Below are positions 1,570-18,002 of a DNA stretch of 18,002 nucleotides, piece by piece; within the stretch, counting starts at the first letter, position 1, and every line of letters starts with the position of its first letter. The notes beneath the pieces were generated by a model that was given only the letters and a program-made list of their open reading frames with translations, did not search any database and was not told the origin of the DNA. The stretch comes from a virus. The DNA is taken from the UHGV virus genome UHGV-0701411. One strand, given 5' to 3'. A program made the translations under genes and the position numbers.

Positions 1570-1756
1570 CTCAATTAATACCCATCGCCTTACGTCCGCA
1601 CTTCAATTAATCGAGCAAGCAGCGGCTATCCTGGTTGCTGTCAGTCTTTCGGCTGAAGAAATGGACGCTGCTGATGTCGTGGATGCGATTAAAGCGTGCT
1701 CATCTTTGGTTAACGATGCCCGTGCAGAGCTGGTAATTCTTGGTGGTGAAAAATGA
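1562..1756 (+). CDS. Hypothetical small protein (64 aa, MNNSINTHRLTSALQLIEQAAAILVAV...)
   Basis: ATG 1562 overlaps the upstream stop (1567-1569), with a G-rich stretch upstream. Internal start of track ORF 1505..1756. Confidence 0.5.
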   Translation: MNNSINTHRLTSALQLIEQAAAILVAVSLSAEEMDAADVVDAIKACSSLVNDARAELVILGGEK

Positions 1757-2016
1757 ATATCAACTTAATTTATCGTCATCCGTGTGAGCTGGAAATTGAA
1801 TCATTGCTGGGGCGCGAAGAGCCATATCCAGACACATTCACTCCCGCAGATTGCGCGACTGAACGGCTTACCAGAGCGCGCACAGGTCTGGTTCATGTGA
1901 TGAATGAGATTATTCCCTCGGTGGGAGGGGAACAGGCGACAGTAATCAATAGCTGGCTACAAAAAGTTACCTCCCTGATAGATATCAGTTTAATCGATGT
2001 GGAGAGTGCGAAATGA
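1753..2016 (+). CDS. Hypothetical small protein (87 aa)
   Basis: ATGA start/stop overlap with the upstream gene at 1753-1756; SD-like GGTGGTGA upstream. Confidence 0.55.
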   Translation: MNINLIYRHPCELEIESLLGREEPYPDTFTPADCATERLTRARTGLVHVMNEIIPSVGGEQATVINSWLQKVTSLIDISLIDVESAK

Positions 2017-2234
2017 CCAACATCCAGCTCATTGAAGCGCAATGTCGCATCGAACAGGTTCAGACTGTTTTAGGGTTCTGGCTTGAAGGGGCCAGCCCAA
2101 GCAACAGAGACAAGTTAATGATTGGCGCGGTTATGTCACTGCTCAATGGCGTACCAGAAGCTATTCAGGAAGCGGACGAATTGTTGGGCAAATATGAGTT
2201 ACAGAATCATTCAGGCGAGGCGAAACATGAATAA
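2013..2234 (+). CDS. Hypothetical small protein (73 aa)
   Basis: ATGA overlap at 2013-2016; SD-like GGAGAGTG upstream. Confidence 0.55.
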   Translation: MTNIQLIEAQCRIEQVQTVLGFWLEGASPSNRDKLMIGAVMSLLNGVPEAIQEADELLGKYELQNHSGEAKHE

Positions 2235-2829
2235 TTTCTTAACCTTCCATGCAGAAGCAACGCCTGACGGCGTAAACATCATGCACCGCAGCAACGATGG
2301 CATGACAGAACGCGTTGAGACCGTCTCATATATTGATGCCGTAAATCGTCTGGATGCCGGGGATTATGACGATAAACCAGATGAAGGCATGTTTATACAT
2401 CTCGCTATTGCCAGTGGCGGCAACCAGGGATATTTCGATTACACATCACAGCATCACGTGATTATGTGGCGCTGGCTGATAGCAACAGCATTCATCAATG
2501 AAATGAGAAAGGAAAACGGCACCGTCAGCATTATTGATGACAGTGGCAATCATTCCGTGGTTTCTGTTTATTCCAATGGCATCGTCGCCATGCCGCTGTA
2601 TCCAGTAGCAGAGCGCCTCGCTATGGCAAACAACATTGAGGGCGCAATGATCGAGAAATATGGTGTTGATGTCGGAACAAAGAATGCCATCATTTTTTAC
2701 AGCAACATGTTCGATGTCGAACAGGGAACACTCACTTCGTTTGGGCGAGAAGTGCTTGCCGATCTTCACAACAGCTTTATTGCCGAACTAAACGAAAACG
2801 GCATCCCAGAAGCACCAGTGACGCACTAA
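2227..2829 (+). CDS. Hypothetical protein (200 aa, MNNFLTFHAEATPDGVNIMHRSNDG...); alternative start 2122
   Basis: ATG 2227 overlaps the upstream stop (2232-2234), in line with the coupled operon. Last gene before the primase; no family recognised. Confidence 0.6.
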   Translation: MNNFLTFHAEATPDGVNIMHRSNDGMTERVETVSYIDAVNRLDAGDYDDKPDEGMFIHLAIASGGNQGYFDYTSQHHVIMWRWLIATAFINEMRKENGTVSIIDDSGNHSVVSVYSNGIVAMPLYPVAERLAMANNIEGAMIEKYGVDVGTKNAIIFYSNMFDVEQGTLTSFGREVLADLHNSFIAELNENGIPEAPVTH

Positions 2830-2841
2830 ACGGGGGCCAGA

Positions 2842-5193
2842 ATGCGAAACATTGATCTTATCCGTCAGGTTATCAGTGCGTCTGAAAACAACTGGCCTCA
2901 TGTGCTGGGCTGCCTGAACATAAATGTCCCTGACTCTCCGCGCCGTCATGCTCCCTGCCCTGCATGTGGGGGCAAAGATCGATTCCGGTTCGATGACAAC
3001 GGGCGCGGTAGCTTCATCTGTAATCAGTGCGGCGCTGGTGATGGGCTGGATTTAATTAAACGCGTAAATAACTGCGACACAACAGAGGCGGCGCTTCTTG
3101 CCGCTGATGTTCTGGGTATTGATTACCGGACAACGGAAACACCAGAAGCCACCAGCCAGAAACGGGAACAACTGGAAACCGAGCGCCAGCGACGCGAACA
3201 GGAGCGCCTGAAAAGGGCAGAGAAGGACGAACAACAAAGACGGGATACGTTTTCCCGTCAGTTTGATGACATGCGCAGAAAGGCTGTAAACGGCAAATCT
3301 GATTATCTGGTTGCGAAAGGGGTAGGTGATTTTACATTCCCCGTGTTGCCCGATGGATCTCTGTTGCTGGCGCTGGTGGATAAATCCGGCGCAGTCACAG
3401 CAGCACAGACTATTACCTCACATGGTGAAAAAAGACTCCTGACAGGTTCGGCAAAGCGGGGGGCATATCACGCCATAAACGCACAGAAACGACCTCACAG
3501 CATCATAATTGCTGAGGGGGTGGCTACCGCCCTGTCGTGCCATTTAATTCGCCCTGACGCAATGACAGTGGCAGCAATCGACGCTGGCAACCTGTTGCCA
3601 GTAGCGGAAGTCATGCGCAGAACATATCCACAGGCACAAATCATCATTGCCGCAGATAACGATCACCAGCAAGGAAACTCCGAAAGTGGAGGGATCAACA
3701 CGGGGAAAGATGCCGCAGAGAGGGCCGCTATTTCCGTAGCTGGCTGGGTGTCTCTGCCACCGACTGACTATAAAGCCGACTGGAACGACTATCACCAACA
3801 ACACGGGCTGGCGGCAGCCACAGCAGCATTTAAAGATTCGATGTACCAGCCACGGGGGAAAGGGGCGCAGGTGAAAAATCACAAACAGCCAGTCGGGGCG
3901 CTGAATGAGATCAGTTCTGGCGAGGTGTTAAGCGATGATGAAATTGCTGTCCTCGAAGAAATCAACCGGACGTTTACGCATGTCACCATTGGCGGGAAAC
4001 ACAAGGTGGTGTCGCTAAAGCCTTCTCAAACCGGCGGTGTATCGCACGTTTTCGAGGATTTATCACAATTTCAGCATTATTTTCATCATAAACCGAGAGT
4101 CGCCAGAAAGCTGGCGGGATCGGCGTGGCTGTCATGGAGTGGGAAGAACTACAAGCCAGGAGGCGTAGGATTTTATCCAGTACCAGGCAAATGCCCTGGC
4201 GATGTTTTTAATCTGTATGAGGGGCTGGCACTGGAACCAATTGAAGGAGATTGCACGGTATACCTTAATCACCTGTTGCAGGTTGTCTGTGCCGGTAATG
4301 AAGAGGCATACCAATATCTTATCCAGTGGATGGCGCACATTATCCAAAAGCCTGATGAAAAACCGTCCGTGGCAATCGTGATGAAATCTGTCCCGGGCAC
4401 AGGGAAAGGCACAACGGTTAAACCGCTGCTGCAAATACTGGGGCAGTACGCCGCCCACATTAACGGGGCGGGACATATTTCAGGGCGCTTCAATTCAATA
4501 CTTGCTAACAAGCTACTGGTATTTGCTGACGAAGTGACGATCCACAAGCCGTCTGAAGCTGACAGACTTAAAGCGATTATTAGCGAACCGACGTTTAACC
4601 TTGAGCGCAAGGGAATTGATGCTGAACCAATGCCGAATTTTGCCCGGTTGATATTTGCCAGTAACAGCACACAGGTATTACAGGCAGGGATAAGAGAGCG
4701 CCGCTATCTCGTGCTTGAGCCATCTCCTGAAAAAGCACAGAGCCGGGAGTATTTTGATCGGCTGTACAGTTGGCTTAATGATGGCGGTGCCGCAAAGTTG
4801 CTTTGGCATCTTAAAGGGGTGGATCTCTCAGGTTTTGACCCTCAACGAGCGCCACAGACCGATGCCTTACGTGAAGAAATCTTGCTGGGGCTGTCTGGCG
4901 TTGAATTGTTTCTTTATGGCGAGCTAATCAATGAACCTCCGTTTAATGGCGAAGTCCGTTTGTTTGCAAAGGATATGGTTAGTCGATTTGTAGCGTGGTC
5001 GCTTGAGCGTGGGGAAAAGCTTAAAGAGCCAGCAGCCAGATCACTACTGGGTAAATCACTTGCACAAATGGGGCTGGTGAAGCATGGAAGACCAGACCGA
5101 GGGAATGGCGTGTTCTACGAACTACCAGAGGTCGGAGTTCTACAGGCTGCGTTTGCCCGTCTGATCGGTATGGGGGGTTATGATGTTTTTTAA
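2842..5193 (+). CDS. P4 alpha-type bifunctional DNA primase/helicase (783 aa)
   Basis: N-terminal zinc ribbon CPACGG...CNQCG. Central TOPRIM-like segment (IIIAEGVATALS, AADND). C-terminal P-loop NTPase with Walker A VMKSVPGTGKGT and Walker B LLVFADEV. Architecture matches P4 alpha / D5-like primase-helicases. Confidence 0.93.
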   Translation: MRNIDLIRQVISASENNWPHVLGCLNINVPDSPRRHAPCPACGGKDRFRFDDNGRGSFICNQCGAGDGLDLIKRVNNCDTTEAALLAADVLGIDYRTTETPEATSQKREQLETERQRREQERLKRAEKDEQQRRDTFSRQFDDMRRKAVNGKSDYLVAKGVGDFTFPVLPDGSLLLALVDKSGAVTAAQTITSHGEKRLLTGSAKRGAYHAINAQKRPHSIIIAEGVATALSCHLIRPDAMTVAAIDAGNLLPVAEVMRRTYPQAQIIIAADNDHQQGNSESGGINTGKDAAERAAISVAGWVSLPPTDYKADWNDYHQQHGLAAATAAFKDSMYQPRGKGAQVKNHKQPVGALNEISSGEVLSDDEIAVLEEINRTFTHVTIGGKHKVVSLKPSQTGGVSHVFEDLSQFQHYFHHKPRVARKLAGSAWLSWSGKNYKPGGVGFYPVPGKCPGDVFNLYEGLALEPIEGDCTVYLNHLLQVVCAGNEEAYQYLIQWMAHIIQKPDEKPSVAIVMKSVPGTGKGTTVKPLLQILGQYAAHINGAGHISGRFNSILANKLLVFADEVTIHKPSEADRLKAIISEPTFNLERKGIDAEPMPNFARLIFASNSTQVLQAGIRERRYLVLEPSPEKAQSREYFDRLYSWLNDGGAAKLLWHLKGVDLSGFDPQRAPQTDALREEILLGLSGVELFLYGELINEPPFNGEVRLFAKDMVSRFVAWSLERGEKLKEPAARSLLGKSLAQMGLVKHGRPDRGNGVFYELPEVGVLQAAFARLIGMGGYDVF

Positions 5194-5223
5194 TATAGTC
5201 TTTTTACAAGAAGATCGCTTTTA

Positions 5224-5328
5224 CCTGTACCACCTATACCACTTTGCTAATTCAGTATTAAAAACAGTGCGTTATAGTGGTACAGGTCAATATCTTACCT
5301 ATACCAGACCTGTACCACCTATACCATT
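5224..5328. repeat. Iteron-like repeat cluster A: three copies of CCTGTACCAC(C)TATACC, two direct (5224-5242, 5309-5328) and one inverted (5271-5288)
   Basis: Read directly from sequence. Lies just 3' of the primase stop; candidate primase/replication-protein binding sites (ori/crr-like) or recombination sites. Confidence 0.6.
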
Positions 5329-5369
5329 AACAAACGCATTTCTTCTGGCTGGCTGAGAGGAAACAACCA

Positions 5370-5600
5370 ATGATGAGCACACCATTTTACAAAGTGCGCC
5401 AGTTAGCTTCTTCCTCTGGCTGGCAGCTACGGTTTGAGGGGCGTTCAGACTGGCTACCCATTGCGGCATGGGCGAATGTTGAAATGTGTATTGACGGCGA
5501 TACCGTTGAAATCATTATTCCCTGCGTGGCAAGTCGGGACGGCTGTATAGAGCCAACAGATATGGCAGCAGAAATCAGAGAGGTAAAACATGAACAATAA
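5370..5600 (+). CDS. Hypothetical protein (76 aa)
   Basis: SD AGAGGAAA 6 nt upstream of ATG 5370; overlaps the downstream gene start at 5590. Confidence 0.55.
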   Translation: MMSTPFYKVRQLASSSGWQLRFEGRSDWLPIAAWANVEMCIDGDTVEIIIPCVASRDGCIEPTDMAAEIREVKHEQ

Positions 5601-6327
5601 CTATTGCATACCGCAGGGAATGACCAGAACGGAGCGCGAAGAATTAAAAAGTTTCGCTACACAGTGCGGGAATGCTGGCGACATCCAAAGTCTGGAACGC
5701 ACTTTAATTATGATTGCGCACTGGATGCGCCAGGGGCAAAGAGTTTCATTTACTGAATATGCCAGCCAGTGGACAGAGGCACAGCGCGAACGGAGCGACG
5801 GTAATCACTCAACACCCGAAATGGCGAAGCAATGGCCTTTCAGTGGTAAACGCTGTATCAGTCCCGGTGGTTCAGATTATTACCCTGCTGGTGTGGGAGA
5901 TGAGCCATGTTGTGACGAGACTGAAATCCGCCACGCAGTGACAGTAATTACCGCTGAATACCCACAATTTAACCTTGACGGACTGGCGCTCCACAACCGG
6001 AATGCGGACTGGGAAAACCCGCTTGATAACCCGTCATTTATCGTATCGGCGAAAAGCTGCCTGAGATGGATCAGAGACAACGGGATGAGTAATGCCCAGA
6101 TTGAGAGCTTCCCGCAGGATAACCCCACATCTGACACGTTGAAGCATGAAGTGGAGCGATATAACCAGATAAACCACCAGCACAGTGATCACCCGCACTA
6201 TATCCCCAACGGAGCATTTATTGCGGCGATGGTGGCAAGCGGCTACAAGGTTAAGCCAGCGGGAAGAATGAACGCATTTTTCAATATTTCAAAAAAGGGA
6301 TTATGTGCTGCTATGGGTAAAAATTAA
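5590..6327 (+). CDS. Hypothetical protein (245 aa)
   Basis: ATG 5590 preceded by AGAGG; 11-nt overlap with the upstream ORF; no recognisable domain. Confidence 0.6.
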   Translation: MNNNYCIPQGMTRTEREELKSFATQCGNAGDIQSLERTLIMIAHWMRQGQRVSFTEYASQWTEAQRERSDGNHSTPEMAKQWPFSGKRCISPGGSDYYPAGVGDEPCCDETEIRHAVTVITAEYPQFNLDGLALHNRNADWENPLDNPSFIVSAKSCLRWIRDNGMSNAQIESFPQDNPTSDTLKHEVERYNQINHQHSDHPHYIPNGAFIAAMVASGYKVKPAGRMNAFFNISKKGLCAAMGKN

Positions 6328-6332
6328 ATAAA

Positions 6333-6437
6333 TGGTACAGGTCTGTACAGGTGGGGAGAGGTCATTTTTACCCACCTGTACCACCTGCAGGCCGCGCCAC
6401 ACAAGGGTTTGTGACATGGTGGTACAGGTGGTACAGC
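6333..6437. repeat. Iteron-like repeat cluster B: GGTACAGG / CCTGTACCACCT copies at 6333-6356, 6371-6391 and 6418-6437, partly arranged as an imperfect palindrome
   Basis: Same core motif as cluster A; together the clusters bracket the 5370..6327 module. Confidence 0.6.
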
Positions 6438-6801
6438 AAAAACAGCGATTTTCTTTATAAGGTATGTTTTGCTCATCTGGCAGACGGAGGTATTCGCTGC
6501 GGTTTGGCACATAGCCCAGAATAGCAAAGAGTTTTACGAGACTTTTGTAAAATCCAGTGTACAAGGGCGTGACGTTTTTGAAGGAGAGACCTACGAAATT
6601 TTCGTAGTTCAAAAAATAGCCTCTGAGATGTTGTTATGCCTGTTCAGCAAACCATCCGCATAGCTGATCGCGAATCAAATTACCAATGGAGCCAGAAGCA
6701 AGGGCAGAACTGAAAAGCTCACGCCATGAAGAATAATGCGACTCCATAAATATAGTTTTTAGAGTCCATAAAAAAACTGTCAAAACCTGACATACAGAAC
6801 G

Positions 6802-6835
6802 ATGCCACCAGCTACTGAACGGTGGCATTTTTTTG
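6802..6835 (+). terminator. Rho-independent terminator candidate (ATGCCACC-loop-GGTGGCAT followed by T7)
   Basis: 8-bp GC-rich stem, 11-nt loop, then TTTTTTTG on the + strand. Confidence 0.6.
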
Positions 6836-6854
6836 TGCTATTTGTTTCATATTT

Positions 6855-6916
6855 TGCAATCACAATGATGAATGTTGCGTTTTATGAAACTATAATAACT
6901 GTTGTTTTATACAGTT
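6855..6916 (+). promoter_or_regulatory. Putative promoter (-10 TATAAT at 6891-6896) with a LexA-box-like palindrome AACTGTTGTTTTATACAGTT (6897-6916)
   Basis: CTGT-N8-ACAG with an AT-rich spacer matches the E. coli SOS-box consensus CTGT-(AT)4-ACAG. It sits between the -10 and the RBS of the 6930 operon. The -35 is unclear. Confidence 0.4.
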
Positions 6917-6929
6917 CTAAGGGGGCGTT

Positions 6930-7103
6930 ATGGCTATTTCAGTAAAGCCAGTATTGATAAGTGAGAAGCAAATGGAAGCGATAAAGAAAATTCAGGAGGA
7001 GCAGCGTAAAAAATCAGAGGTAGGAGTTGCGCCAACGATCCACGAAATTGCTCGGGGATTAATGGATAAGGCGCTGGCTTACACTTTAACTGGACGTGGG
7101 TAA
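6930..7103 (+). CDS. Small protein (57 aa, MAISVKPVLISEKQMEAIKKIQEEQRKKSEVGVAPTIHEIARGLMDKALAYTLTGRG), possible ribbon-helix-helix fold
   Basis: Absent from the ORF track because it is short. SD AAGGGGG 4-5 nt upstream of ATG 6930; stop TAA at 7101-7103, 4 nt before the next start. The strand-helix-helix pattern is inferred from the sequence only. Confidence 0.45.
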   Translation: MAISVKPVLISEKQMEAIKKIQEEQRKKSEVGVAPTIHEIARGLMDKALAYTLTGRG

Positions 7104-7107
7104 ATCA

Positions 7108-8574
7108 ATGGCTACGTGGCAACAGGGTATTAATTCTGGTGGTTTTCTGGCTGGCATTGGTGCGCAAAATGAGAATGCGCCAAAGGCAAGCGACATTAAC
7201 GCAACGCTTGGTATGATCCGCGAAAACAATGAACTGGCTCGATCAGGTGCAAATAACGTTGCTCTGACAGGTCTTCGTGGTCTGGCTGGAGTTGCTGATA
7301 TTTATAAGCAGCAGCAACAGCAGGAGCGTAAAGCGGCATTCCAGAAAGGTTATGCAGATGCTTATGCGTCCGGTGACAGGGAGCAGATGCGTAATCTTAT
7401 TACAGCATTCCCAGAAGAGTTTGAGGAAGTCCGTAAAGGGATGAGTTATGTCGATGATGCTCAAAGGGATGATTATGGCAATCTGGCGCTCAAAGCACAG
7501 GTAGCCTCATCGCTTGGTCAGGGCGCATTTGGCAGGTTCATGATGGATAATGAGCAGGAGATGCGTCGTTTAGGTATCCCTCCAGAAACTATTGCTGAAA
7601 TGCAGGTTAATGACCCGCAGGGCTTCCAGCATTTCGCAGGTAATCTGGCGCTGTTTTCTCTCGGTCATGAGAAGTATTTCGATATCAAAGACCAAATGGA
7701 AGGTCGGGATATTGAGCGTGGCAAGTTGGCAGAGACAATCCGCAGCAATCAGGCTGGCGAAGCACTTCAGGCGAGAGGGCAGGATATTAGCCGAGCAAAT
7801 GCGTTAACGTCAGCATATGCCCCAACAGCAGCAATGCAGAATTACAATCAGTACGCTCAAATGTTAAAGGCGGATCCAGAGGGGGCGGCGGCATTTGCGG
7901 CAGCGGCTGGAATTAATACAAACGCCAAAAAATTAATGAGTGTTAGAGAAAACGATGATGGCACTGTCACAAAATACTACACAGACGGAAGTGAAGAGCA
8001 TGGAAAACTAAACCAGCCAATATCTGGAGATGGGTTTCGTCCAATAGCTTTGCCAACAGCCCAAAAGATCATGGAAAAGTCGCCAGAAGGGGCTAAAAAA
8101 GCTGCTGGATTTGCATACAGAGTTAGGGATGCTCTTGATTCAATGGATACACTGAAAGGCCAGCTTAGCCCACAGCGAGTGGCGATCATTAATAATGCTT
8201 TGGGTAATGGGACGCTGGCTAACTTAACGCTCAGCCCAACAGAGCAGCAATACGTTGTTAATGCTAATGACGCAATAATGGCAATACTCCGTCAGGAAAC
8301 AGGGGCAGCTATCGTACCTGCTGAAATGTCAAAATATTATCAAATGTATTTCCCTCAGCCTGGCGACTCCACAAAAACCATTGATACCAAGCGCCGGAAG
8401 ATGGAAAACCAGTTCAATTCGCTGAAAGCTGCTTCTGGTCGAGCTTATGATGCTTTGCGGGTTATTTCAGCAGTTGACAGAGGGACTTCTTCTTCGTCGC
8501 AGACATTGCCGCAATCTGAGCAGGTATCACAGCCAGCAGCCAGCAGTAATTTTTCTTCACTATGGGGTGATTAA
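7108..8574 (+). CDS. Large hypothetical protein A (488 aa), Ala/Gln/Gly-rich low-complexity, family not recognised
   Basis: Long ORF with start ATG 7108 (track begins at GTG 7096). Stop overlaps the start of protein B (TAATG at 8572-8576). No catalytic motif seen. Confidence 0.8.
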   Translation: MATWQQGINSGGFLAGIGAQNENAPKASDINATLGMIRENNELARSGANNVALTGLRGLAGVADIYKQQQQQERKAAFQKGYADAYASGDREQMRNLITAFPEEFEEVRKGMSYVDDAQRDDYGNLALKAQVASSLGQGAFGRFMMDNEQEMRRLGIPPETIAEMQVNDPQGFQHFAGNLALFSLGHEKYFDIKDQMEGRDIERGKLAETIRSNQAGEALQARGQDISRANALTSAYAPTAAMQNYNQYAQMLKADPEGAAAFAAAAGINTNAKKLMSVRENDDGTVTKYYTDGSEEHGKLNQPISGDGFRPIALPTAQKIMEKSPEGAKKAAGFAYRVRDALDSMDTLKGQLSPQRVAIINNALGNGTLANLTLSPTEQQYVVNANDAIMAILRQETGAAIVPAEMSKYYQMYFPQPGDSTKTIDTKRRKMENQFNSLKAASGRAYDALRVISAVDRGTSSSSQTLPQSEQVSQPAASSNFSSLWGD

Positions 8575-10679
8575 TGGCTAAAGCATGGAAAGATGTTATC
8601 GCCTCTCCACAGTATCAGGCGTTAGCACCAGAACAAAAAGCGCAGGCTCAGGAGCAATACTTCAATGAAGTCGTGGCCCCGCAAGCCGGAGAAAGTGTAG
8701 AGCAGGCTAAGCAGGCTTTTTATGCTGCCTATCCACTACCATCAACGAATGAAATAGACCGATCCCAATCAGCAACTCAAAATATTCAACATACATCATC
8801 TGATAATTCTCTTGCGTCAGGGTATGCAAAGTTAGCTACTCAGCAAAGAGAGGGGCTTGAGCGTTCAGCAGAACAGGGAGCCAGTCTTGGGGCTGCTATG
8901 CGCGATGCTATAACAGGCGAAAGCCGAATGACTCCAGAGATGGAGAGACTGCAAAATGTCGACCTTGCCCCAGAGTTAACCTCACTCAGCATGGATGCTC
9001 TAAAAGCTCGATGGTCTCAACTTTTCGGCTCTGACGCATCTCAGGAAAAGATTCTTCAGAGCATGGGAGCGAAATTAAGGCAGGATGAGAAGGGTAACAC
9101 TATCGTTTCCCTGCCATCCGGTGATTATGCTCTGAACAAGCCGGGTTTATCGCCGCAAGACGTGGCATCGTTTCTGGCTAATGCGCTGGCGTTTACACCA
9201 GCGGGCAGGGCTGGAACGGTGCTTGGTGCCATAGGAAAATCAGCAGCTACAGATTTAGCACTACAGGGAGCCACCAGCCTTGCTGGTGGAGAAGATATTG
9301 ATCCGTTACAAACGGTAATTTCTGCTGGCATTGGTGGTATTGGTAAGGGGCTGGAAAATACAGCGAGTGCGGTTTCGAGGGCTGTTCGTGGTGATATGTC
9401 GCCTGAAGCAAAGGCTGCTGTCAACTTTGCATCGGAAAGAAATCTGCCGTTAATGACCAGTGACATGCTGAAAGATAAAACCTTTATGCAGAGTCAGGCT
9501 CAGACATTAGGCGAAAGAGTTCCTTTTTTTGGAACCGGTAAGAATCGGCTGAATCAACAACAAGCACGAGAAAATTTAGTCAGAACATTTAGCGATGGTC
9601 TGGGTGGCATTTCTGATAAACAGCTTTATGAATCTGCGACTAAAGGGCAACAAAAATTCATTGAGGCAGCAGGAAAGCGATATAACCGCATAATTGACGC
9701 TATGGGGGATACCCCTGTCGATCTCTCAAACACGGTAAAAGCTATCGACAATCAGATTGCCGTGTTAAGCCGCCCTGGCAAATCTCAGGATAGAGCCGCG
9801 GTAAAAGTCTTGCAGCAATTTAAAGACGATATCACCAGCGGACCAAATGACCTGCGTCTGGCGAGGGAAAACAGAACCGATCTTCGAAAGCGATTTATGG
9901 CGTCATCTGACACTGTTGATAAAGATACGCTCCAGAAAGCCAGCGATATTATCTACAAGGCATATACGGCGGATATGAAAAAAGCCGTAGCCAAAAATCT
10001 TGGAGCAGACGAAGCCATTAATATGGCAAGGGTTGATCGCTCATGGTCTAAATTCAATGACATGATGGGAAGAACGCGCGTTCAAAAGGCAATAGCCAGC
10101 GGCAAGGCCACGCCTGAGGATGTAACAAAACTCGTTTTTAGCCAAAGCCCATCAGAACGTTCTCAGCTTTACAGGCTTCTGGATGACAATGGTAGGCAAA
10201 ACGCACGAGCAGCCATAGTTCAGAATGCTGTAGATAAGGCGACTGATCCGTCTGGAAATATCAGTGTTGAGAAGTTTATTAATGCGTTACACCGGAACAG
10301 GAAGCAATCAGCAACTTTCTTTAAAGGCGTACATGGAAAGGAACTGGACGGCGTTATTAAATACCTCAACGATACAAGACACGCGGCAAAAGCGAACGTT
10401 CAAAACTTAAATGGTCAGCAGCTTTATGGATTGTTAGTTGGTGGTGGCATCATAAACGCAGCAGTATTAGCGGGGATGCTAAAAACGGCTGCGTTTGTTG
10501 TTCCTGCTGCTGGTGCCGTAGGCGGAGCAGCGAAGGCATACGAAAGCCCTGTTATTCGAAATGCCTTGTTACGTCTGGCAAATACGCCAAAAGGTAGCAC
10601 AGCATATGACAGAGCGATCAGTACGGTCACACAATCACTGACCACAGCAGCACAAGCATCGCAAAAGGAAGCTCAATAA
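8574..10679 (+). CDS. Large hypothetical protein B (701 aa), Ala/Gln-rich with a C-proximal Gly/Ala-rich hydrophobic segment
   Basis: ATG 8574 is translationally coupled to A. Hydrophobic stretch LYGLLVGGGIINAAVLAGMLKTAAFVVPAAGAVGGAAKAY encoded at about 10424-10546. No enzymatic motif seen. Confidence 0.85.
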   Translation: MAKAWKDVIASPQYQALAPEQKAQAQEQYFNEVVAPQAGESVEQAKQAFYAAYPLPSTNEIDRSQSATQNIQHTSSDNSLASGYAKLATQQREGLERSAEQGASLGAAMRDAITGESRMTPEMERLQNVDLAPELTSLSMDALKARWSQLFGSDASQEKILQSMGAKLRQDEKGNTIVSLPSGDYALNKPGLSPQDVASFLANALAFTPAGRAGTVLGAIGKSAATDLALQGATSLAGGEDIDPLQTVISAGIGGIGKGLENTASAVSRAVRGDMSPEAKAAVNFASERNLPLMTSDMLKDKTFMQSQAQTLGERVPFFGTGKNRLNQQQARENLVRTFSDGLGGISDKQLYESATKGQQKFIEAAGKRYNRIIDAMGDTPVDLSNTVKAIDNQIAVLSRPGKSQDRAAVKVLQQFKDDITSGPNDLRLARENRTDLRKRFMASSDTVDKDTLQKASDIIYKAYTADMKKAVAKNLGADEAINMARVDRSWSKFNDMMGRTRVQKAIASGKATPEDVTKLVFSQSPSERSQLYRLLDDNGRQNARAAIVQNAVDKATDPSGNISVEKFINALHRNRKQSATFFKGVHGKELDGVIKYLNDTRHAAKANVQNLNGQQLYGLLVGGGIINAAVLAGMLKTAAFVVPAAGAVGGAAKAYESPVIRNALLRLANTPKGSTAYDRAISTVTQSLTTAAQASQKEAQ

Positions 10680-10740
10680 CAGATGACCATGGATGGTTGG
10701 TTATAATAGTAATTAGTATTTTTTCAAATAGTTATGAACA

Positions 10741-12571: not shown

Positions 12572-12853
12572 ATGATAAGGGACAGGAAAGCTGAAGAGCT
12601 GGAGTCAAAAGGGCTATACCGGAGAGCTGCCGCACGATGGATGGAAGTCATGCTGTTATGCACCGAGGACGATGATCGGGAATGGATAAAGCGCCGCCGT
12701 GAAACGTGTCTGGAGAACGTGAAGCGCCCGCCCGTGAAGGTTGAGGACTTTGGCGACCTGCATAAAGCTGTTACCGAAACGCAACACCGCATGGGGATAG
12801 CGCAACCGAACGGTAACGCCTTCCGGTTAAATGGCGGCAAGAGGCAAAGGTAG
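12572..12853 (+). CDS. PerC-family-like transcriptional regulator (93 aa, MIRDRKAEELESKGLYRRAAARWMEV...)
   Basis: SD GAGAGG 5 nt upstream of ATG 12572. The N-terminal AEELE-KGL-RRAA-RW pattern resembles PerC-type prophage activators; the family call is from memory. Confidence 0.55.
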   Translation: MIRDRKAEELESKGLYRRAAARWMEVMLLCTEDDDREWIKRRRETCLENVKRPPVKVEDFGDLHKAVTETQHRMGIAQPNGNAFRLNGGKRQR

Positions 12854-12857
12854 ACCA

Positions 12858-12902
12858 CCAGAGGGAAATCATCCTCTGGCTGGCGGTTTCTGGTATTTCG
12901 GG
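12858..12902 (+). terminator. Hairpin CCAGAGG-N8-CCTCTGG followed by a T-rich tract; possible terminator of the PerC-like gene
   Basis: 7-bp perfect stem 5 nt after the stop codon; downstream tract GGTTTCTGGTATTTCG is only moderately U-rich. Confidence 0.4.
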
Positions 12903-12911
12903 ACAAGTACG

Positions 12912-12936
12912 CGCGCGCGTAGCACCCAATCGGTGA
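12912..12936. repeat. GACAAGTACGCGCGCGCGTAGCACC repeat (14-bp palindrome TACGCGCGCGCGTA at 12918-12931)
   Basis: Fifth copy of the GTACGCGC motif family; near-identical to 11619-11644. Confidence 0.65.
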
Positions 12937-13150
12937 GGAAATAGCGGCGACCTGAATGGTCAAAATCACAACGCAGCTATCCCCGTAAGCAGCGCTTAAC
13001 GGAATAGCAGTAACCTGAATCCAGTGGGGAGGGGGTAGTCAAATCTCTACAGCCCTGACTATCCGGGACTGCCAGCCCCATCGTTTTTTTATACCCGCGA
13101 AAAATGAAATTTAATCCGGGCGTGTTTCATCCTTCCAGAGGGTATGACGT

Positions 13151-13336
13151 ATGACACCACGCGAAATAGCCTTATTGACCATCGCCAAACTTGAGCACGG
13201 AGGCCACCAGCTTACACAGGCAGATCAACGGGAGATAGAACGATCAGTTAATGCCGATATAGCCCGGCGCGACAGGTTCCGCGAAATGATGCGAGCACCT
13301 GCCTACCAGTGGAAGAAGCCAGCGCCGCGCAGGTAG
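13151..13336 (+). CDS. Hypothetical small protein (61 aa)
   Basis: SD AGAGGG 6 nt upstream of ATG 13151; basic C-terminus. Confidence 0.45.
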   Translation: MTPREIALLTIAKLEHGGHQLTQADQREIERSVNADIARRDRFREMMRAPAYQWKKPAPRR

Positions 13337-13456
13337 ATATGGGATTATTCCACATGTAACTTATGCGTATTAAGCAAATTTCCTTTATTCACCTTTACAG
13401 AATTGTGAGTACGTCAGTATCGTTATCCTTCCGATTCGCATTTATTCAGGATTTGC

Positions 13457-13999
13457 ATGTACCAGCTAAAGATAACCATCCGAGACAGCAAACCACCTAT
13501 ATGGCGGCGTGTGCTGGTTCCAGAGCAAATCCCCTTTAGTAAACTTCATGCCGTGATCCAGTTAGCTTTTGGCTGGCATGACGAACACCTGTATATGTTC
13601 GAGAAAGGGCGTAAAGGTGATCCAGGTAGCGAGTATCACGTATGGGGTGAGGATGAAAGCATGGGTAACGCGGCAATCACGCCACTATGGGCGGCGCTCC
13701 AGAATGAGGGTGACAAGCTGGTTTACACGTATGACTTTGGCGACTGGTGGGATTGCGTCATTGTGCTGGAGAAGCAAACACACGATACGAGTAATCAGCC
13801 CATTAGCTGCCTGCGTGGGAAAGGCACCACCCCGGCGGAAAACTCAGGCGGCTTGCATGGTTACAATGAATTGCTATTACAGGCCAGAGAGTCTGATAAT
13901 CCTGAGCAGGCCGAGATCCACAATTTCCTGATGCTGGATATTGAACGCCGGGTTTACGACCTGAGCCGCATCAACGACAGATTGCAGGCTATTAACTGA
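13457..13999 (+). CDS. Plasmid pRiA4b ORF-3-like (MM3350-like) family protein (180 aa)
   Basis: Hallmark motifs YQLKITIRDSKPPIWRRVLVP ... LHAVIQLAFGWHDEHLYMF ... YTYDFGDWWDCVIVLE match the conserved signature of this family as I recall it. Confidence 0.8.
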   Translation: MYQLKITIRDSKPPIWRRVLVPEQIPFSKLHAVIQLAFGWHDEHLYMFEKGRKGDPGSEYHVWGEDESMGNAAITPLWAALQNEGDKLVYTYDFGDWWDCVIVLEKQTHDTSNQPISCLRGKGTTPAENSGGLHGYNELLLQARESDNPEQAEIHNFLMLDIERRVYDLSRINDRLQAIN

Positions 14000-14351
14000 C
14001 CCGCATGTATTCACCTGATATTGCGTTATCAGCGCCGCCAGTATCGCGCATAACAGCACAATGACCGGGTAAACCGTAACGCACGACCGTTGCGTTAGTC
14101 TCACCGCCGCGCCGTATCTGGCGCGATTCATACACTGTCACCCGCTCAAGCAGTCCACCAGCAACCATGCTTTCCAGTGTGCGCCGGGTTGATTCGAGCT
14201 GGTGACGCTTATCGAACGACACCATGCCATGAAGCAGGTAGGCCACACCCGACACATCGAACGGCGGCGCACCAATCTCACCAGTCACCCATTCGAGGTT
14301 ATCCGGCTCAAAATAACTGAGTATCTCTTTTTTACGGCTGGTCATTCTCAT
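13992..14351 (-). CDS. Hypothetical protein (119 aa), possibly a winged-helix DNA-binding protein
   Basis: Convergent with the pRiA4b ORF-3-like gene (8-nt overlap); SD-like AAGGAA upstream of ATG 14351 on the minus strand. Confidence 0.55.
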   Translation of the reverse strand: MRMTSRKKEILSYFEPDNLEWVTGEIGAPPFDVSGVAYLLHGMVSFDKRHQLESTRRTLESMVAGGLLERVTVYESRQIRRGGETNATVVRYGLPGHCAVMRDTGGADNAISGEYMRVS

Positions 14352-14471
14352 GGCTGGCTGATTCCTTATTGTGGGATAGCGGTATCATACAATAAGGCGC
14401 AAAAGATAAGAGGCCAGAACAGCAAGCACAAGAGCATAAAATGAGCAACCAAAGGCAGCACCTCAAAATAC

Positions 14472-14738
14472 CGTGTACACAAGGGTGTACCTACTGAGAA
14501 AACGCATTACAAGAAACACAGCAACCACGGGAGTTTAAAGCCACTACTCAATAAACAGATCCAGAATATCGAATAAGCTATCAGCAAAAATCACCAAGCA
14601 GCAAAAAACCATAAAGCCCGCGAAATGTCGGGCTTTTTTGTTATCATGAGCTATCATAACGACGCAACAAAGCGCATGATTATGGTGTACACAAAGGTGT
14701 ACCCAATGAGGTTTGGGTACATTGCTTTGGGTACACCC
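14472..14738. repeat. Repeat family GTGTACACAA(A/G)GGTGTACC (14472-14492, 14684-14704) and GGGTACATTGCTTTGGGTACACCC (14715-14738) upstream of the integrase; candidate Int arm-type (attL) sites
   Basis: Near-identical 20-mers about 210 bp apart, directly 5' of the integrase start; related copies at 6555-6575, 11192-11207 and 11505-11515. Confidence 0.55.
14613..14640 (+). terminator. Rho-independent terminator (AAAGCCCG-loop-CGGGCTTT then TTTTTTG)
   Basis: Perfect 8-bp stem with 8-nt loop and a T-run; A-run on the 5' side makes it potentially bidirectional. Sits between the att-like repeats and the integrase start. Confidence 0.7.
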
Positions 14739-14765
14739 CCTATTCAAAGTTTGGATATTCGCAAA

Positions 14766-16025
14766 ATGCCAAAACTAACAGACATGCAGATCCGCGCATG
14801 GATTAAGAGCGGAGAGCGATTCGAGGGGCGGGCAGACGGTAACGGTTTATACCTACGTTACCGTGAAGCCGACAAAACCCCCACATGGAGATTCCGCTAT
14901 AAACTCGCAGGGAAGTCCCGCGCCATGCTAATTGGTTCGTATAGCGAGATATCACTATCAAAGGCCAGAGAGACAGCCAAAGAGCTGTCAGCCAGAGTTG
15001 CTCTTGGCTATGACGTAGCAGCAGAGAAACAGGAACGAAAAGCTGAAGCACTGGCAAAAATGGAGGCTGAGAAAAACGCCATGCGTGTTTCAGATCTGGC
15101 CTCCGAATACTTCGAGCGCCAGATACTTCCGAGATGGAAACATCCCGATATCCTTCGCCGGAGAATTGATAAGGATATTAACCCCTGCATTGGGCATATG
15201 AAGGTAGAGGACGTTAAGCCACGCCACATTGACGACATGTTGAAAGGTATCGTTGACCGAGGAGCACCAACGATAGCAACAGATGTATTACGCTGGACAC
15301 GCCGTATCTTTGACTACGGGATAAAACGCCACGCTCTGGAGATAAACCCTTGTTCAGCGTTTGAAGTATCTGATGCTGGTGGTAAAGAGGTTTCCCGCGA
15401 CCGTTGGCTAACTCGCGATGAGCTTATCAGGCTATTCGAGGCTATGCGCACCGCAAAAGGATTCAGCCGCCAGAACGAACTGACATTTAAGCTATTGCTG
15501 GCACTATGCGTTCGTAAGATGGAGTTATGCGCCGCACGATGGGAAGAGTTTGATTTAGATGGTGCGGTATGGCATTTGCCGGAAGAACGCAGCAAAAACG
15601 GAGACCCTATTGATATACCTCTACCTTCTCCAGCCGTTGAATGGTTGAGAGAACTACACACCTTTTCATGTAATAGCGCATGGGTGCTTCCAGCCAGGAA
15701 GATGCAAAACAGAATGATCCCACATATTCAGGAAAGCACTTTGCCCGTAGCACTGGCTAAGGTTCGCGCCGAAATGCCGGATGTGCCTAATTTCACGATT
15801 CACGACTTCCGACGCACCGCACGTACTCATTTAGCAGCGTTGGGCGTTGATCCGGTAGTCGCAGAAAGATGCCTTAATCACAAAATTAAAGGTGTGGAGG
15901 GTATCTATAACCGTCACCAGTATTTTGATGAGCGTAAAGCGGCGCTGGCGCAGTGGTGTGATTTGCTGGTGGCACTGGAGCGCGGCGAAGAATACAACGT
16001 GACGCCTATCAGAAAGGCAAAGTAA
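14766..16025 (+). CDS. Tyrosine site-specific integrase, P4/CP4-57 type (419 aa; alternative starts 14706 or 14625)
   Basis: N-terminus MPKLTDMQIRAWIK...GLYLRY...WRFRYK matches the P4-type Int N-terminal pattern. C-terminal catalytic signature HDFRRTARTHL ... Y. The track ORF begins at 14625 but overlaps the terminator hairpin, so a downstream start is preferred. Confidence 0.93.
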   Translation: MPKLTDMQIRAWIKSGERFEGRADGNGLYLRYREADKTPTWRFRYKLAGKSRAMLIGSYSEISLSKARETAKELSARVALGYDVAAEKQERKAEALAKMEAEKNAMRVSDLASEYFERQILPRWKHPDILRRRIDKDINPCIGHMKVEDVKPRHIDDMLKGIVDRGAPTIATDVLRWTRRIFDYGIKRHALEINPCSAFEVSDAGGKEVSRDRWLTRDELIRLFEAMRTAKGFSRQNELTFKLLLALCVRKMELCAARWEEFDLDGAVWHLPEERSKNGDPIDIPLPSPAVEWLRELHTFSCNSAWVLPARKMQNRMIPHIQESTLPVALAKVRAEMPDVPNFTIHDFRRTARTHLAALGVDPVVAERCLNHKIKGVEGIYNRHQYFDERKAALAQWCDLLVALERGEEYNVTPIRKAK

Positions 16026-16118
16026 CCGAACAGACCGGAACTAGCCCGACGGGGCGAAAAGCGGAAAGCCTTACCGCCTGTTCCGGTCACTCTTTAAGGC
16101 AGCGCGAAAGGTTACGCT

Positions 16119-17000
16119 ATGAGCAAATTGTTCCAGTTCAAAAGTTGGTTGACCATAGAGGAAACCGCAAACAGGTTAAGCACAACACTCGGTGAAAGGG
16201 TATCTGTAGCCGATTGCCTGCAATTGGCTGTAGAAGGCCACATTACAATTTCAGCGATATTGGACGAAGGCCGTTACGCTATCGCTGCTCAAGTCATCAA
16301 AAACTCGCAACGAAGAGTTTTTGAAAAGTGGATTGTTGAAAATACTAACGAAGGTGCGGTAATTAGAACTCCTGCCGGTGATGAATTCTATACCAATGAA
16401 CAATTGGATTATGAATACGAAGATATAGAAAGAGTCAGTGATGTTTTTCGTATTAATCATGGCATATACGATCTACCGATGGTTGGGGCTGAATCTTTAG
16501 ATGTTATGCACGAGTTTGACCTTTCACGCGACAAGGTTCCCCGTGAATTTCACAACATGGAAGGTGCTTTCCTCTTAACAGAATTTGGTCTGGTGAATAT
16601 TCTGAACGCGTTCAATGAATATGCCATCAAGTCAGATGAAAATGGCAAACCTAAACTGTACGACAAAGAATCACAGAGGTTTGTTGACTTTAGCCTCGAT
16701 GGTTATCATCCCTTTTTCTATCCTGCTGATGGGCTGGGTAATGTCGAGTTCGTATTCAGAAAAGAAAATATTGCAGAATTTGAAAAGAAAACACTCAGTG
16801 ATAACAACAGTCTCCTGAACCTCGATGAAAGCCTTTTACTGCTTGGCGCGGTGCTCAACGCTTTAAAGAAAGCCGAACCAACTTCTAAAAGGTGGACACA
16901 AGAAGCCCTCAAAGCAGAAATGCTGGATAGGGGTTTAAAATTAAGCTCCCGCTTACTGGATGAATATTTCTCATCAGCTAACAAATCTTTTAAATCATAA
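16119..17000 (+). CDS. Hypothetical protein (293 aa), AT-rich cargo gene between int and alpA
   Basis: SD GAAAGG 7 nt upstream of ATG 16119. About 42% GC versus about 52% in flanks. No recognisable domain. Confidence 0.8.
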   Translation: MSKLFQFKSWLTIEETANRLSTTLGERVSVADCLQLAVEGHITISAILDEGRYAIAAQVIKNSQRRVFEKWIVENTNEGAVIRTPAGDEFYTNEQLDYEYEDIERVSDVFRINHGIYDLPMVGAESLDVMHEFDLSRDKVPREFHNMEGAFLLTEFGLVNILNAFNEYAIKSDENGKPKLYDKESQRFVDFSLDGYHPFFYPADGLGNVEFVFRKENIAEFEKKTLSDNNSLLNLDESLLLLGAVLNALKKAEPTSKRWTQEALKAEMLDRGLKLSSRLLDEYFSSANKSFKS

Positions 17001-17004
17001 AGAT

Positions 17005-17036
17005 AATTTCGCAACGAAAATCCATTTTTCGTTGCG
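17005..17036 (+). terminator. Perfect inverted repeat TCGCAACGAAAA-N5-TTTTCGTTGCGA; terminator or operator candidate
   Basis: 12-bp stem, 5-nt loop, immediately after the 16119..17000 stop and before alpA. Confidence 0.45.
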
Positions 17037-17105
17037 ATGACATCTAATCCCCCTGCTCACATGATTACCGTAACTTCAACAGCTATCACAGGAGTTACAG
17101 GACAT

Positions 17106-17324
17106 ATGACAGCACATAACGCAGCGCAATCAGCACTTCCTACTACTGGATACATCCGCCGTTTTCGTATGCCGGAACTTCTGGGTGTTTCCATGCCAAC
17201 CATTGACCGCTGGGTTAAGAACGGCACGCTGCCGCGCCCAGTGAAACTCACCGATAACGTGACCGCCTTTGATGCGGTAGAGATTAATAACTGGCTGGCT
17301 GAGCGCCGGGGAAAGGTGGCGTAA
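17106..17324 (+). CDS. alpA: AlpA-family phage transcriptional regulator/excisionase-like protein (start uncertain: 17037, 17061 or 17106)
   Basis: Segment IRRFRMPELLGVSMPTIDRWVKNGTLPRPVKL...AFDAVEINNWLAER matches the AlpA/Vis-type MerR-like HTH pattern. Position after int is as in CP4-57. Confidence 0.75.
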   Translation: MTAHNAAQSALPTTGYIRRFRMPELLGVSMPTIDRWVKNGTLPRPVKLTDNVTAFDAVEINNWLAERRGKVA

Positions 17325-17758
17325 TGAAAAAGAAAAACCGCCCCGTACAGCAGGCGGCTAACTCAGATATTCGCACGTCTGATATTACGCCGACCACCAG
17401 CCCGGTACAAGTACCTAAGCGTACCCCAAAGAAACACCGCGCCCGCGTCTATATGCTGCGTACTGGTATAGAGGGATGGACAGAAAATGACATTCTTCGC
17501 TACTGCCGTCTGTCTTCTGGTCGTAACTATGCAACAGAGTTAGAACGCCAGCTTGGAATCACTCTGGAGCGTATCGACGAAAAGAATCCTGATGGTATCG
17601 GAACACACCTTCGCTACCGTTTCTCCTGCCGTGGTGATGTTCTGAAAGTGATCACTCATGTTAACCATCTTGCGAACATAAATGATCACAACGGACTTTC
17701 TCAGCAGGAAATTGCCGACATTCTGAAACTCTACCCGGACGCGTTTAACGCCGCCTAA
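17324..17758 (+). CDS. Hypothetical protein (144 aa) with basic N-terminus
   Basis: ATG 17324 overlaps the alpA stop (TAATG), indicating coupling; no family recognised with confidence. Confidence 0.65.
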   Translation: MKKKNRPVQQAANSDIRTSDITPTTSPVQVPKRTPKKHRARVYMLRTGIEGWTENDILRYCRLSSGRNYATELERQLGITLERIDEKNPDGIGTHLRYRFSCRGDVLKVITHVNHLANINDHNGLSQQEIADILKLYPDAFNAA

Positions 17759-17770
17759 CGGAGACTGAAA

Positions 17771-18002
17771 ATGAACATCGAAAAAAGCAGATTAATTTCT
17801 GAGGCTGCCCCTCATCTGAACGCCTCTCTGGGCACAATTAACGGTAATGAATTTGCCGCAATTGTCCCGGTTATTCCTGGTCATATCGGTGGGCGTGAAA
17901 CCAATATTGTTAGCGCAAAAGCGTTACACAAAGCGTTGGGCGTGGGAAAAGACTTCTCTACATGGATCACTGATCGCATCTCTGAATATGACTTCACCAT
18001 TG
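17771..18002 (+). CDS. Phage antirepressor-like protein (AntA/Bro-N-type N-terminal domain), 3' end outside window
   Basis: SD GGAGA upstream of ATG 17771. Motif SAKALHKALGVGKDFSTWITDRISEY resembles the antirepressor N-terminal domain; the ORF is open to the window end. Confidence 0.55.
   Translation, partial: MNIEKSRLISEAAPHLNASLGTINGNEFAAIVPVIPGHIGGRETNIVSAKALHKALGVGKDFSTWITDRISEYDFTI

Follow-up and report, generated by a model that had tools for sequence, protein, structure and literature searches.

A predicted attP-form site beside the integrase gene of a PICI-like satellite that targets the 3' end of yicC

Positions 14397 to 14765 of the 18,002-nucleotide stretch of DNA analyzed here (the window) represent, with an estimated probability of about 0.88, the attP-form site of a Gram-negative PICI-like phage satellite of ~18.3 kb that inserts at the end of yicC. 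The interval under study comprises the 414 bp between a leftward 119-aa open reading frame (ORF; positions 13992 to 14351) and int (Table 1). In the multi-site alignment, the segment from 14397 to 14765 consists of the arm from the right end of the element, a 21-bp core, and the arm from its left end and is followed by int; judged by its sequence, this is an attP-configured site with a P arm, a core, and a P' arm.

The two sides of the junction are found apart from each other in integrated copies. A megablast search of complete E. coli genomes showed that positions 14556 to 16100 of the window are 99.9% identical to a segment that carries the 3' end of yicC, which accounts for its initial 21 bases, and a tyrosine integrase gene. 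In the blastn comparison with an integrated copy (L001, in which yicC is followed by int, the rest of the element, and dinD), positions 14556 to 18002 matched the attL side with 99.9% identity, positions 1 to 10696 matched the element interior, and positions 14411 to 14563 matched the attR-proximal end. Between the yicC stop codon and int, integrated copies carry a sequence with 99.9% identity to the P' arm, and the core is identical to the terminal 21 bp of E. coli yicC. This core was defined by aligning the window junction with attL, attR, and the empty attB of E. coli K-12, and the same comparison was repeated with the matched attR of the same element and with attL sites that adjoin an identical int. 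In the alignment, the window junction reads CTCAATAAA / CAGATCCAGAATATCGAATAA / GCTATCAGC, attL reads yicC...GAG / CAGATTCAGAATATCGAATAA / GCTATCAGC, and K-12 attB reads ...GAG / CAGATTCAGAACATCGAATAA / CTCGTAAC; the attR core in the ENA contig NODE_193 (see below) is CAGATCCAGAACATCGAATAA.

Two core polymorphisms are reciprocal: attP has C6/T12, attB has T6/C12, attL has T6/T12, and attR has C6/C12, with the attB markers read from K-12, which is not the same strain, on the assumption that the host attB is K-12-like. This pattern places strand exchange between core positions 6 and 12, in CAGAA, a crossover interval that we infer from these two single-nucleotide polymorphisms. The attL of L105, which has C6, is an exception to the marker pattern. 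In other strains, attR deletions begin immediately past CAGATTCA. The initial annotation had proposed an att site upstream of int, in the form of either an attP-like site or an attR/attL hybrid, and both proposals were borne out: the core and the arms match the ends of integrated copies, and the four-way alignment resolves the P arm, the core, and the P' arm. The comparison with an empty site that it had envisaged, made here with K-12 attB in the same core alignment, is what defined the 21-bp core.

Many integrated copies of the element in E. coli have attR cores that were eroded by deletions of variable extent; the attP-type junctions are intact.

Table 1. Features of the attP-form site and of the adjoining genes, in window coordinates
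Feature	Position	Strand	Remarks
Inverted repeat of the cargo module, not part of the att site	14364..14397	.	Upstream of the leftward 119-aa gene
P arm (right end of the element), specific to the recombination module	14397..14555	+	Matches the attR-proximal end of integrated elements
P-arm doubled motif, co-oriented half-sites TGTACACA and TGTACCTA	14473..14493	+	Half-sites 12 bp apart; center 81.5 bp upstream of the crossover
Conserved block AAAACGCATTACAAGAAAC, between arm sites and core	14499..14517	+	Kept in the P arms of E. coli, Serratia (L043), and Erwinia (L065)
Core (identity block) CAGATCCAGAATATCGAATAA	14556..14576	+	Final 7 codons of yicC (QIQNIE + stop)
Inferred strand-exchange segment CAGAA	14562..14566	+	Bracketed by two natural polymorphisms
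P' arm (left end of the element), including the int upstream region	14577..14765	+
Intrinsic terminator, bidirectional	14613..14642	.	Hairpin at 14613..14636 plus T-run
Conserved block ATCATGAGCTATCATAACGACGCAACAAAGCGCATGATT	14643..14681	+	Kept across Enterobacterales homologues
P'-arm doubled motif, half-sites TGTACACA and TGTACCCA	14685..14705	+	Half-sites 12 bp apart; center 130.5 bp downstream of the crossover
Two inverted half-sites TGTACCCAAA	14712..14737	-	Centers at +153 and +167; 29 to 54 bp before the int ATG
P4-type tyrosine integrase, 419 aa	14766..16025	+	Start MPKLTD
AlpA-family small HTH protein	17106..17324	+	Pfam Phage_AlpA, 26.3 bits (cut-off 21)

The integrase (Int) contains the Pfam domains Arm-DNA-bind_3 (72 bits), Phage_int_M, and Phage_integrase and shows 25% identity to P4 Int (E = 2e-20). 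The MPKLTD start was favored over the ATG codons at 14706 and 14625, with an N-terminus that is conserved among the homologues; gene callers use a start that results in a 439-aa Int. ARAGORN detected no tRNA or tmRNA gene in the whole window, and an Rfam search of positions 14200 to 14900 gave no significant match. A scan for Int homologues, which covered one genome per species, returned proteins with 93% to ~41% identity from Enterobacterales, Aeromonas, Tolumonas, Zobellella, Vogesella, Azonexus, Propionivibrio, and Steroidobacteraceae. In nearly all of these, down to 41% identity, a full yicC gene ends ~190 bp ahead of int, and the clade adjoins yicC in both Gamma- and Betaproteobacteria. 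Since the C-terminus of yicC (EQIQNIE + stop) is highly conserved at the DNA level, the yicC end fills the role that the 3' end of a tRNA gene has for other P4-type integrases. The core next to int is the 3' end of yicC, which sets this element apart from the P4-like islands that target tRNA or tmRNA genes. A sister Int clade (65% identity; L036 and L066) follows a gene ending in ...KRKRLIKHIKKSK, which we take to be der/engA.

The direct repeats, the strong terminator, and the lack of a tRNA gene upstream of int, all listed in the initial annotation, are real, with coordinates that needed a correction of about 1 base. Its reading of the missing tRNA gene as an anomaly did not hold, because the target of these integrases is the end of a protein-coding gene, the 3' end of yicC, which has been published as the att site of MGIVflInd1, SGI1-like elements, Shewanella islands, and the “reference PICIs.” The counter-scenario that it raised, a tRNA gene located just outside the window, is moot.

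The direct repeat GTGTACACAAGGGTGTACC occupies positions 14473 to 14491, and its second copy, GTGTACACAAAGGTGTACC, with one mismatch, occupies positions 14685 to 14703; taken as a 26-nt family, the copies are 88% identical and 212 bp apart. The sequence TTTGGGTACA, found twice (14712 to 14721 and 14726 to 14735), represents reverse-strand copies of the same half-site. All 6 copies of the 8-mer TGTACMYA in the 18-kb window, 4 on the plus strand and 2 on the minus strand, lie inside 14474 to 14735, compared with shuffle expectations of 1.34 for the whole window and ~0.02 for a span of that size; GGTGTAC was observed 4 times (0.97 expected), with all copies in the same region. Counts of de novo 7-mers per locus with one mismatch allowed did not exceed those in shuffled sequences. 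As this kind of counting failed to separate real sequences from shuffled ones, the analysis was based on the enrichment of exact patterns and on the conservation of positions.

The P and P' half-sites of the window are the same. The doubled motif of the P arm is a candidate for arm-type Int sites, and the inverted half-sites are a candidate site of Int autoregulation, which we presume by analogy with P4. A scan for a sigma-70 promoter of int, which included 14643 to 14681, found nothing convincing, so that autoregulation is proposed here by analogy only. The inverted repeat that precedes the P arm is kept unchanged in elements with another integrase and another chromosomal site.

The terminator hairpin was detected on both strands by the scan and folds better than shuffled sequences (z = -2.6). 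A hairpin with a T-run is found at the equivalent position in 40 of the 42 distinct homologous loci, with stems that vary yet remain complementary (GCCCG/CGGGC, CCCCG/CGGGG, GCCTGC/GCAGGC, GCCACG/CGTGGC, ACCCG/CGGGT, and others). Because it directly follows the rebuilt yicC stop codon after integration, the element donates the final seven codons of yicC together with a terminator, which would serve yicC in the integrated state and would insulate int from cargo transcription in the attP form. The conserved block between the P-arm sites and the core is possibly a site for an accessory factor, AlpA/Xis or IHF, and the one that follows the terminator is a candidate accessory-protein site or promoter element. 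Comparison of the conserved blocks with the IHF consensus by eye gave no convincing match.

A doubled motif with a 12-bp period is found at about +130 in nearly all of the ~50 homologous loci, whatever the sequence of the half-site, which is GTGTACCC in most Enterobacterales and in Aeromonas, ATGTACCA in Yersinia, Rahnella, Pantoea, and Serratia proteamaculans, GTGCACCC in Azonexus and its relatives, and GTAGCT in Steroidobacteraceae. The doubled motif of the P arm is found at -81.5 wherever this arm is readable, i.e., in E. coli, Serratia, and Erwinia (L003 to L005, L043, and L065). In elements that combine the same neighboring cargo with a different integrase, the match to the window stops at ~14396 and another arm follows; this replacement arm has a doubled GGGGGTA motif ~81 bp, as counted by hand, from the point where the flanks diverge.

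In phage lambda, the attP core is flanked by arm-type sites, Int has separate arm- and core-binding domains, and a small protein serves as the directionality factor. The site in the window resembles it in being a complex att site with arm-type sites on both arms, whereas the lambda att site lies downstream of int, differs in the number and spacing of its arm sites, and has an intergenic attB. The likeness to P4 is much closer: as in a P4-type complex attP, the site adjoins the gene for an arm-domain integrase, its core and arms correspond to the ends of integrated copies, the markers are exchanged reciprocally, and arm sites lie at fixed distances from the core on both sides. The P4 record (GenBank accession number X51522) is annotated with a core and with doubled 12-bp “attP arm sequence repeats” at -75 and +134 from the core center, as well as an inverted arm repeat at +167, at the start of int, with the half-site GGGGGCA. 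Both integrases belong to the family with an N-terminal Arm-DNA-bind_3 domain, and both int genes read away from the core. The upstream doubled repeat is located at -75 from the core center in P4 and at -81.5 from the crossover in the window, the co-oriented downstream one is at +134 and +130.5, respectively, and both sites have an inverted copy at +167, at or just before the start of int. However, P4 has the 3' end of a tRNA-Leu gene as its core, whereas the core in the window is the 3' end of a protein-coding gene, yicC; the half-sites are GGGGGCA and TGTACMC, respectively; and, in contrast to P4, the window element has a terminator that separates the core from the P' sites, as well as two inverted copies instead of one.

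A similar arrangement has been described for the attP sites of HE-PICIs, where a doubled tgTGTATTGCantgTGTATTGCa motif with the half-site TGTATTGC is located at -81±2 and +132±2 from the attP center, with Int arm domains or AlpA suggested as its binder, and is reported to be absent from other PICIs (PMC10111431). The window has two co-oriented doubled motifs with the same 12-bp spacing, at -81.5 and +130.5, and the PICI-type organization with int and alpA. It does not have the tgTGTATTGCantgTGTATTGCa motif, showing the half-site TGTACMC instead, and its element targets yicC, whereas HE-PICIs target prophage late genes. The HE-PICI motif is reported as restricted, but the same geometry is found in the yicC clade with other half-sites. 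The ruler formed by doubled motifs at -81 and +131 was found in P4, in the yicC clade (from Enterobacterales to Rhodocyclales, as well as Steroidobacteraceae), in the der-targeting sister clade, and in the GGGGGTA-type PICI. We regard it as somewhat better than an even bet that this ruler, with an inverted copy at ~+167, is a general and deeply conserved architecture of P4/PICI-type attP sites, in which the half-sites coevolve with the Int arm domain.

The element unit is 18,271 bp long, and the window is an exact rotation that covers 18,002 bp of it. Pfam scans and gene calls identified Int, a 293-aa protein, and the AlpA-like HTH protein, whose gene was confirmed by the gene calls in identical loci; AntA, DUF4222, and Ash in the Bro zone; a primase-helicase with the zinc-ribbon/Toprim/DUF5906 combination; P22 gp20-like and gp16-like ejection proteins; PerC; and PRiA4_ORF3. 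The genes are arranged in the order int, alpA, the Bro/AntA/Ash zone, primase, “late” genes for P22-type ejection proteins, and accessory genes. The AlpA-like protein is a candidate excisionase and activator, with its role in directionality taken from the literature. Gram-negative PICIs have been described as consisting of Integration, Bro, Replication, and Late zones, inserting at yicC, and occurring as tandems of two PICIs (bioRxiv 10.1101/2022.07.18.500453). The window element shares with them the co-oriented series of int, alpA, Bro-type, primase, and late genes, the size range of 10 to 20 kb, the yicC attB, and the matching gene content, and the internal site of their tandem pairs is an attP; its late zone, however, encodes P22-type ejection proteins (gp20-like and gp16-like), as opposed to the commonly cited PICI capsid gene. 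On the basis of this gene content, we refer to the element as PICI-like. Insertion at the 3' end of a protein-coding gene, with restoration of the gene end, is also seen in SGI1 (trmE), MGIVflInd1, SGI1-like integrative elements, and GISpuPO1/GI21 (yicC). However, the SGI1/MGI islands are mobilized by conjugation and carry mpsA/traG/traN or oriT-mimic modules and an RdfM-type excisionase gene near attR, whereas none of mpsA, traG, traN, sgaC, or an RdfM-type recombination directionality factor was found among the Pfam matches of the main window ORFs.

The N-terminal arm domain of Int is the most likely binder of the arm motifs, as suggested by sequence covariation. The der-targeting L036 keeps GTGTAC half-sites, and the arm domain of its Int is 83% identical to that of the window Int, compared with 55% for the core-binding domain and 61% for the catalytic domain. 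In the yicC-targeting GTAGCT lineage, the catalytic domain is ~52% identical, but the arm domain is just 30 to 37% identical. AlpA is co-inherited with Int and is also 86% conserved in L036, but it is only 35 to 40% identical in L019, L023, and L027, where the half-site is unchanged and the Int arm domain is 82 to 87% identical. This covariation tilts towards Int as the motif binder, with AlpA or a different protein of the element as a less likely one. An alternative that we consider unlikely is that the repeats are operators through which AlpA or a repressor regulates int and the leftward 119-aa gene, with the att function residing in the core alone. The inverted copies immediately upstream of int and the co-conservation of AlpA with the motif in L036 agree with this reading, and AlpA or an unidentified protein was left possible as the binder in the HE-PICI study (PMC10111431). 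It does not readily explain, however, why the motifs occupy both arms, with distances to the core that are fixed and match those of the annotated attP arm repeats of P4, why they are exchanged along with the integrase module while the neighboring cargo stays constant, and why the half-site is constant in those loci where AlpA has diverged and the Int arm domain has not.

Other records of the same junction bear on the state of the element from which the window was derived. The ENA metagenome contig ERZ1024453 NODE_193 (19,157 bp; L107 and L123) matches the window with 100% identity and contains, in this order, 44 bp of the P arm, the core, P', int, the whole element, the P arm, the core, B', and dinD; it carries both an attP-type junction and, at its far end, attR with dinD. 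The ends of this contig have just the 55-mer region of the P arm and core in common, and it starts exactly 55 nt ahead of the T12/C12 difference, as expected of a branch in a k = 55 assembly graph; hence, the sample contained reads for the attP-type junction as well as for attR. The junction is also found in a metagenome contig with 99.9% identity (L090) and in a Logan contig (L108), and a diverged version (~84% identity) is found in three records from complete E. coli assemblies. One is a circular “plasmid” of 12,152 bp, another is a permuted “phage” contig of 19,226 bp, and the third is the chromosome of E. coli HB37, in which two near-identical copies lie between yicC and dinD with an intact internal core. 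A chromosomal tandem and an excised circle next to an integrated copy would yield an identical junction and an identical assembly graph, and we give them about equal odds, each slightly short of even.

In the case of a tandem, the window would come from a chromosome with at least two copies of the same element at yicC, formed when Int inserted a circle at the attL or attR of a resident copy or through attL x attR exchange between sister chromosomes, and 14397 to 14765 would be the internal junction. This has a complete-genome precedent in HB37, two-PICI tandems have been reported (bioRxiv 10.1101/2022.07.18.500453), hetero-tandem junctions occur in Rahnella, Pantoea, and Erwinia, and the assembly of the attP path at only ~11x beside attR in the metagenome is easier to explain if the two are equimolar, which slightly favors a tandem. 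However, the window covers less than one unit, with neither a second copy nor a chromosomal flank, and a chromosomal tandem was seen in just 1 of the 481 E. coli genomes with a match. In the case of a circle, the window would contain the circularization junction of an excised copy, replicated with the help of the primase or packaged as a concatemer, that coexists with an integrated one. This agrees with the window being an exact rotation of one unit, with the primase-helicase encoded on the element, and with the deposition of its relatives as a circular “plasmid” and a permuted “phage” contig, both with the junction; Gram-negative PICIs replicate after excision and are packaged as concatemers (bioRxiv 10.1101/2022.07.18.500453). 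On the other hand, spontaneous excision is usually rare, so that a junction assembled from low coverage would call for induction or for maintenance in the manner of a plasmid; the attB junction was not recovered from the same sample, and searches of IMG/VR with exact and degenerate junction patterns gave 0 matches. A similarity search of a phage database with the junction also gave no match. The tandem junction proposed in the initial annotation stands as to its type, which is seen inside the HB37 tandem, whereas an excised circle, which gives the identical junction, is equally viable.

The same annotation had also suggested an accretion of at least two different elements, with the primase part belonging to one island, int being the start of another, and a hybrid attR/attL between them. 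Hetero-junctions do exist in relatives: the P-arm motifs of L031 and L063 (GGGTAGTA and GTACCA) differ from their own P' motifs, and L048 and L065 are two different int genes 11 kb apart on one contig. In the window, however, the P and P' half-sites are alike, and both flanks map to a single contiguous element in L001 and again in NODE_193, with its series of junction, int, whole element, attR, and dinD. The primase gene, ~9.5 kb upstream, and int are parts of the same 18,271-bp unit, and the accretion of two elements, being highly improbable, was rejected for the window. We attach the least credence to an assembly artefact, i.e., a false attR-attL join via the common 21-bp core. The att sites do have a repeat in common, and the 100% identical ENA contig terminates in an Illumina adapter, a sign of imperfect read cleaning. 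However, the same junction turns up in independent data sets as well as in finished genomes, and, as the 21-bp core is shorter than the apparent k, real reads must cross from P through the core to P'.

We propose the following model for the attP-form site of this satellite. The P4-type Int would recombine the 21-bp core with the identical terminal 21 bp of yicC, with strand exchange inside the CAGAA segment, so that the integrated element would rebuild the 3' end of yicC and bring a new terminator. Binding of the N-terminal arm domain of Int to the arm sites would lead to assembly of the intasome and probably to autoregulation of int, and the AlpA-like protein may act as the directionality factor. 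The P-core-P' arrangement implies that the sequence stems either from excised DNA that replicates as a circle or concatemer or from the boundary between head-to-tail copies of the same element at yicC. Either way, the attP-form junction would be an Int substrate, for integration if it is on a circle and for the release of a single unit if it is in a tandem.

These results leave the current understanding of site-specific recombination unchanged, and the site is an ordinary, well-built example of its kind. They account for a P4-type integrase without a tRNA gene through a known alternative target, the 3' end of yicC, and break down an intergenic stretch that carried no annotation into the core with its crossover interval of 5 bp, the arm sites, and a terminator that the element donates. 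The junction itself marks a satellite beyond the simple integrated state, whether circle or tandem. Two aspects appear to be mildly new: the contrast between eroded attR cores and intact attP-type junctions in E. coli and the -81/+131 architecture that P4 and the widespread yicC clade have in common, with covarying half-sites. The latter extends the motif architecture published as “unique” to HE-PICIs to a wider group of integrases, and its geometry can be used for locating the crossover sites of related islands. If the ruler is general, crossover points and attP sites would be predictable from attL alone, and in E. coli carriers with an eroded attR, the intact internal or circular attP would be the sole fully competent partner left for Int.

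Within the window, the satellite's late zone contains genes for homologues of phage P22 ejection proteins, and P22_gp7 and DUF2824 are additionally present in relatives. Such late genes may mean that the helper is P22-like or that the satellite provides its own ejection proteins. The integrase gene, int, has three possible in-frame ATG starts, at 14625, 14706, and 14766. The start at 14706, which lies within the arm-site cluster and gives a product of 439 aa, is often chosen by gene callers and PGAP. Nevertheless, the start at 14766 is favored as the probable one, because the N-terminus MPKLTD is conserved and the annotation of Escherichia coli HB37, a strain carrying a two-copy tandem of a diverged form of the element, gives 419 aa.

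Features of the satellite, its attachment sites, and related loci (L-numbers denote the homologous loci compared)
Feature	Location	Remarks
Inj_translocase (gp20-like) and Phage_P22_gp16 homologues	window 7108-8574 and 8574-10679	satellite late zone
Right-end cargo module (PerC, 61-aa ORF, PRiA4_ORF3, 119-aa ORF)	window 12572-14396	
attR sites of elements integrated in E. coli	L001 38251-38270, L005 38269-38290, L086 2057-2075, L087, L088, L092, L094, L097, L121	
Loci of sister integrase clade	L036 2741-2775; L066 2741-2775	
attP-type junctions with mixed arms	L031 2700-2830 and L063 2700-2830	Rahnella, Pantoea

Most single-copy integrated E. coli elements have deletions in their attR cores. 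The deletions vary in length from 2 to >11 bp and share a common start directly after CAGATTCA. In the E. coli comparison, the full 21-bp core is kept in all attL and all attP-type junctions, and a single intact attR was seen, on the metagenome contig NODE_193 (L123). A similar pattern, the “DNA damage” of tRNA fragments at attR, has been described for PICIs (PMC10111431), but the target here is a protein-coding gene. NODE_193 itself ends in the Illumina adapter sequence AGATCGGAAGAGCACACGTCTGAACTCCAGTCAC (L123 18255-18290), a technical contaminant of the deposited assembly. Just ahead of the adapter, dinD appears to be broken up by a fragment of IS type.

Besides its collinear match, a 234-bp segment of the window (6294-6527) has a second copy, 97.9% identical, near the right end of the integrated E. 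coli element L001 (37887-38120), which may reflect either an internal duplication or a transposed segment. Strain Res13-Lact-PEB17-18 also carries a reverse-transcriptase family gene between slmA and pyrE (L001 16351-17310), a few kilobases from the yicC island and with no relation to the window.

In the sister clade (L036 and L066), the integrase shows ~65% identity, the arms carry GTGTAC half-sites as in the window, and the P' arm is nearly identical. In place of yicC, the gene upstream of int ends in ...KRKRLIKHIKKSK and is, we assume, probably der/engA. It thus looks as if core specificity has been switched and arm specificity retained in this clade. The attP-type junctions from Rahnella and Pantoea combine a P-arm half-site of one type with a P' arm of another, and in Erwinia endophytica a truncated second int lies 11 kb past the first on the same contig (L048 and L065). 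All of these are hetero-tandems, so outside E. coli, in other genera, accretion of different elements does take place at yicC.

The right-end cargo module is also found in related islands (L091, L093, L095, L098 to L100, L111, and L112) that have a different integrase and occupy a second chromosomal site, adjoining yagQ/paoD-type xanthine-dehydrogenase genes. Since their similarity to the window ends at ~14396, exactly where the P arm starts, this arrangement indicates that recombination modules are exchanged as units between islands.
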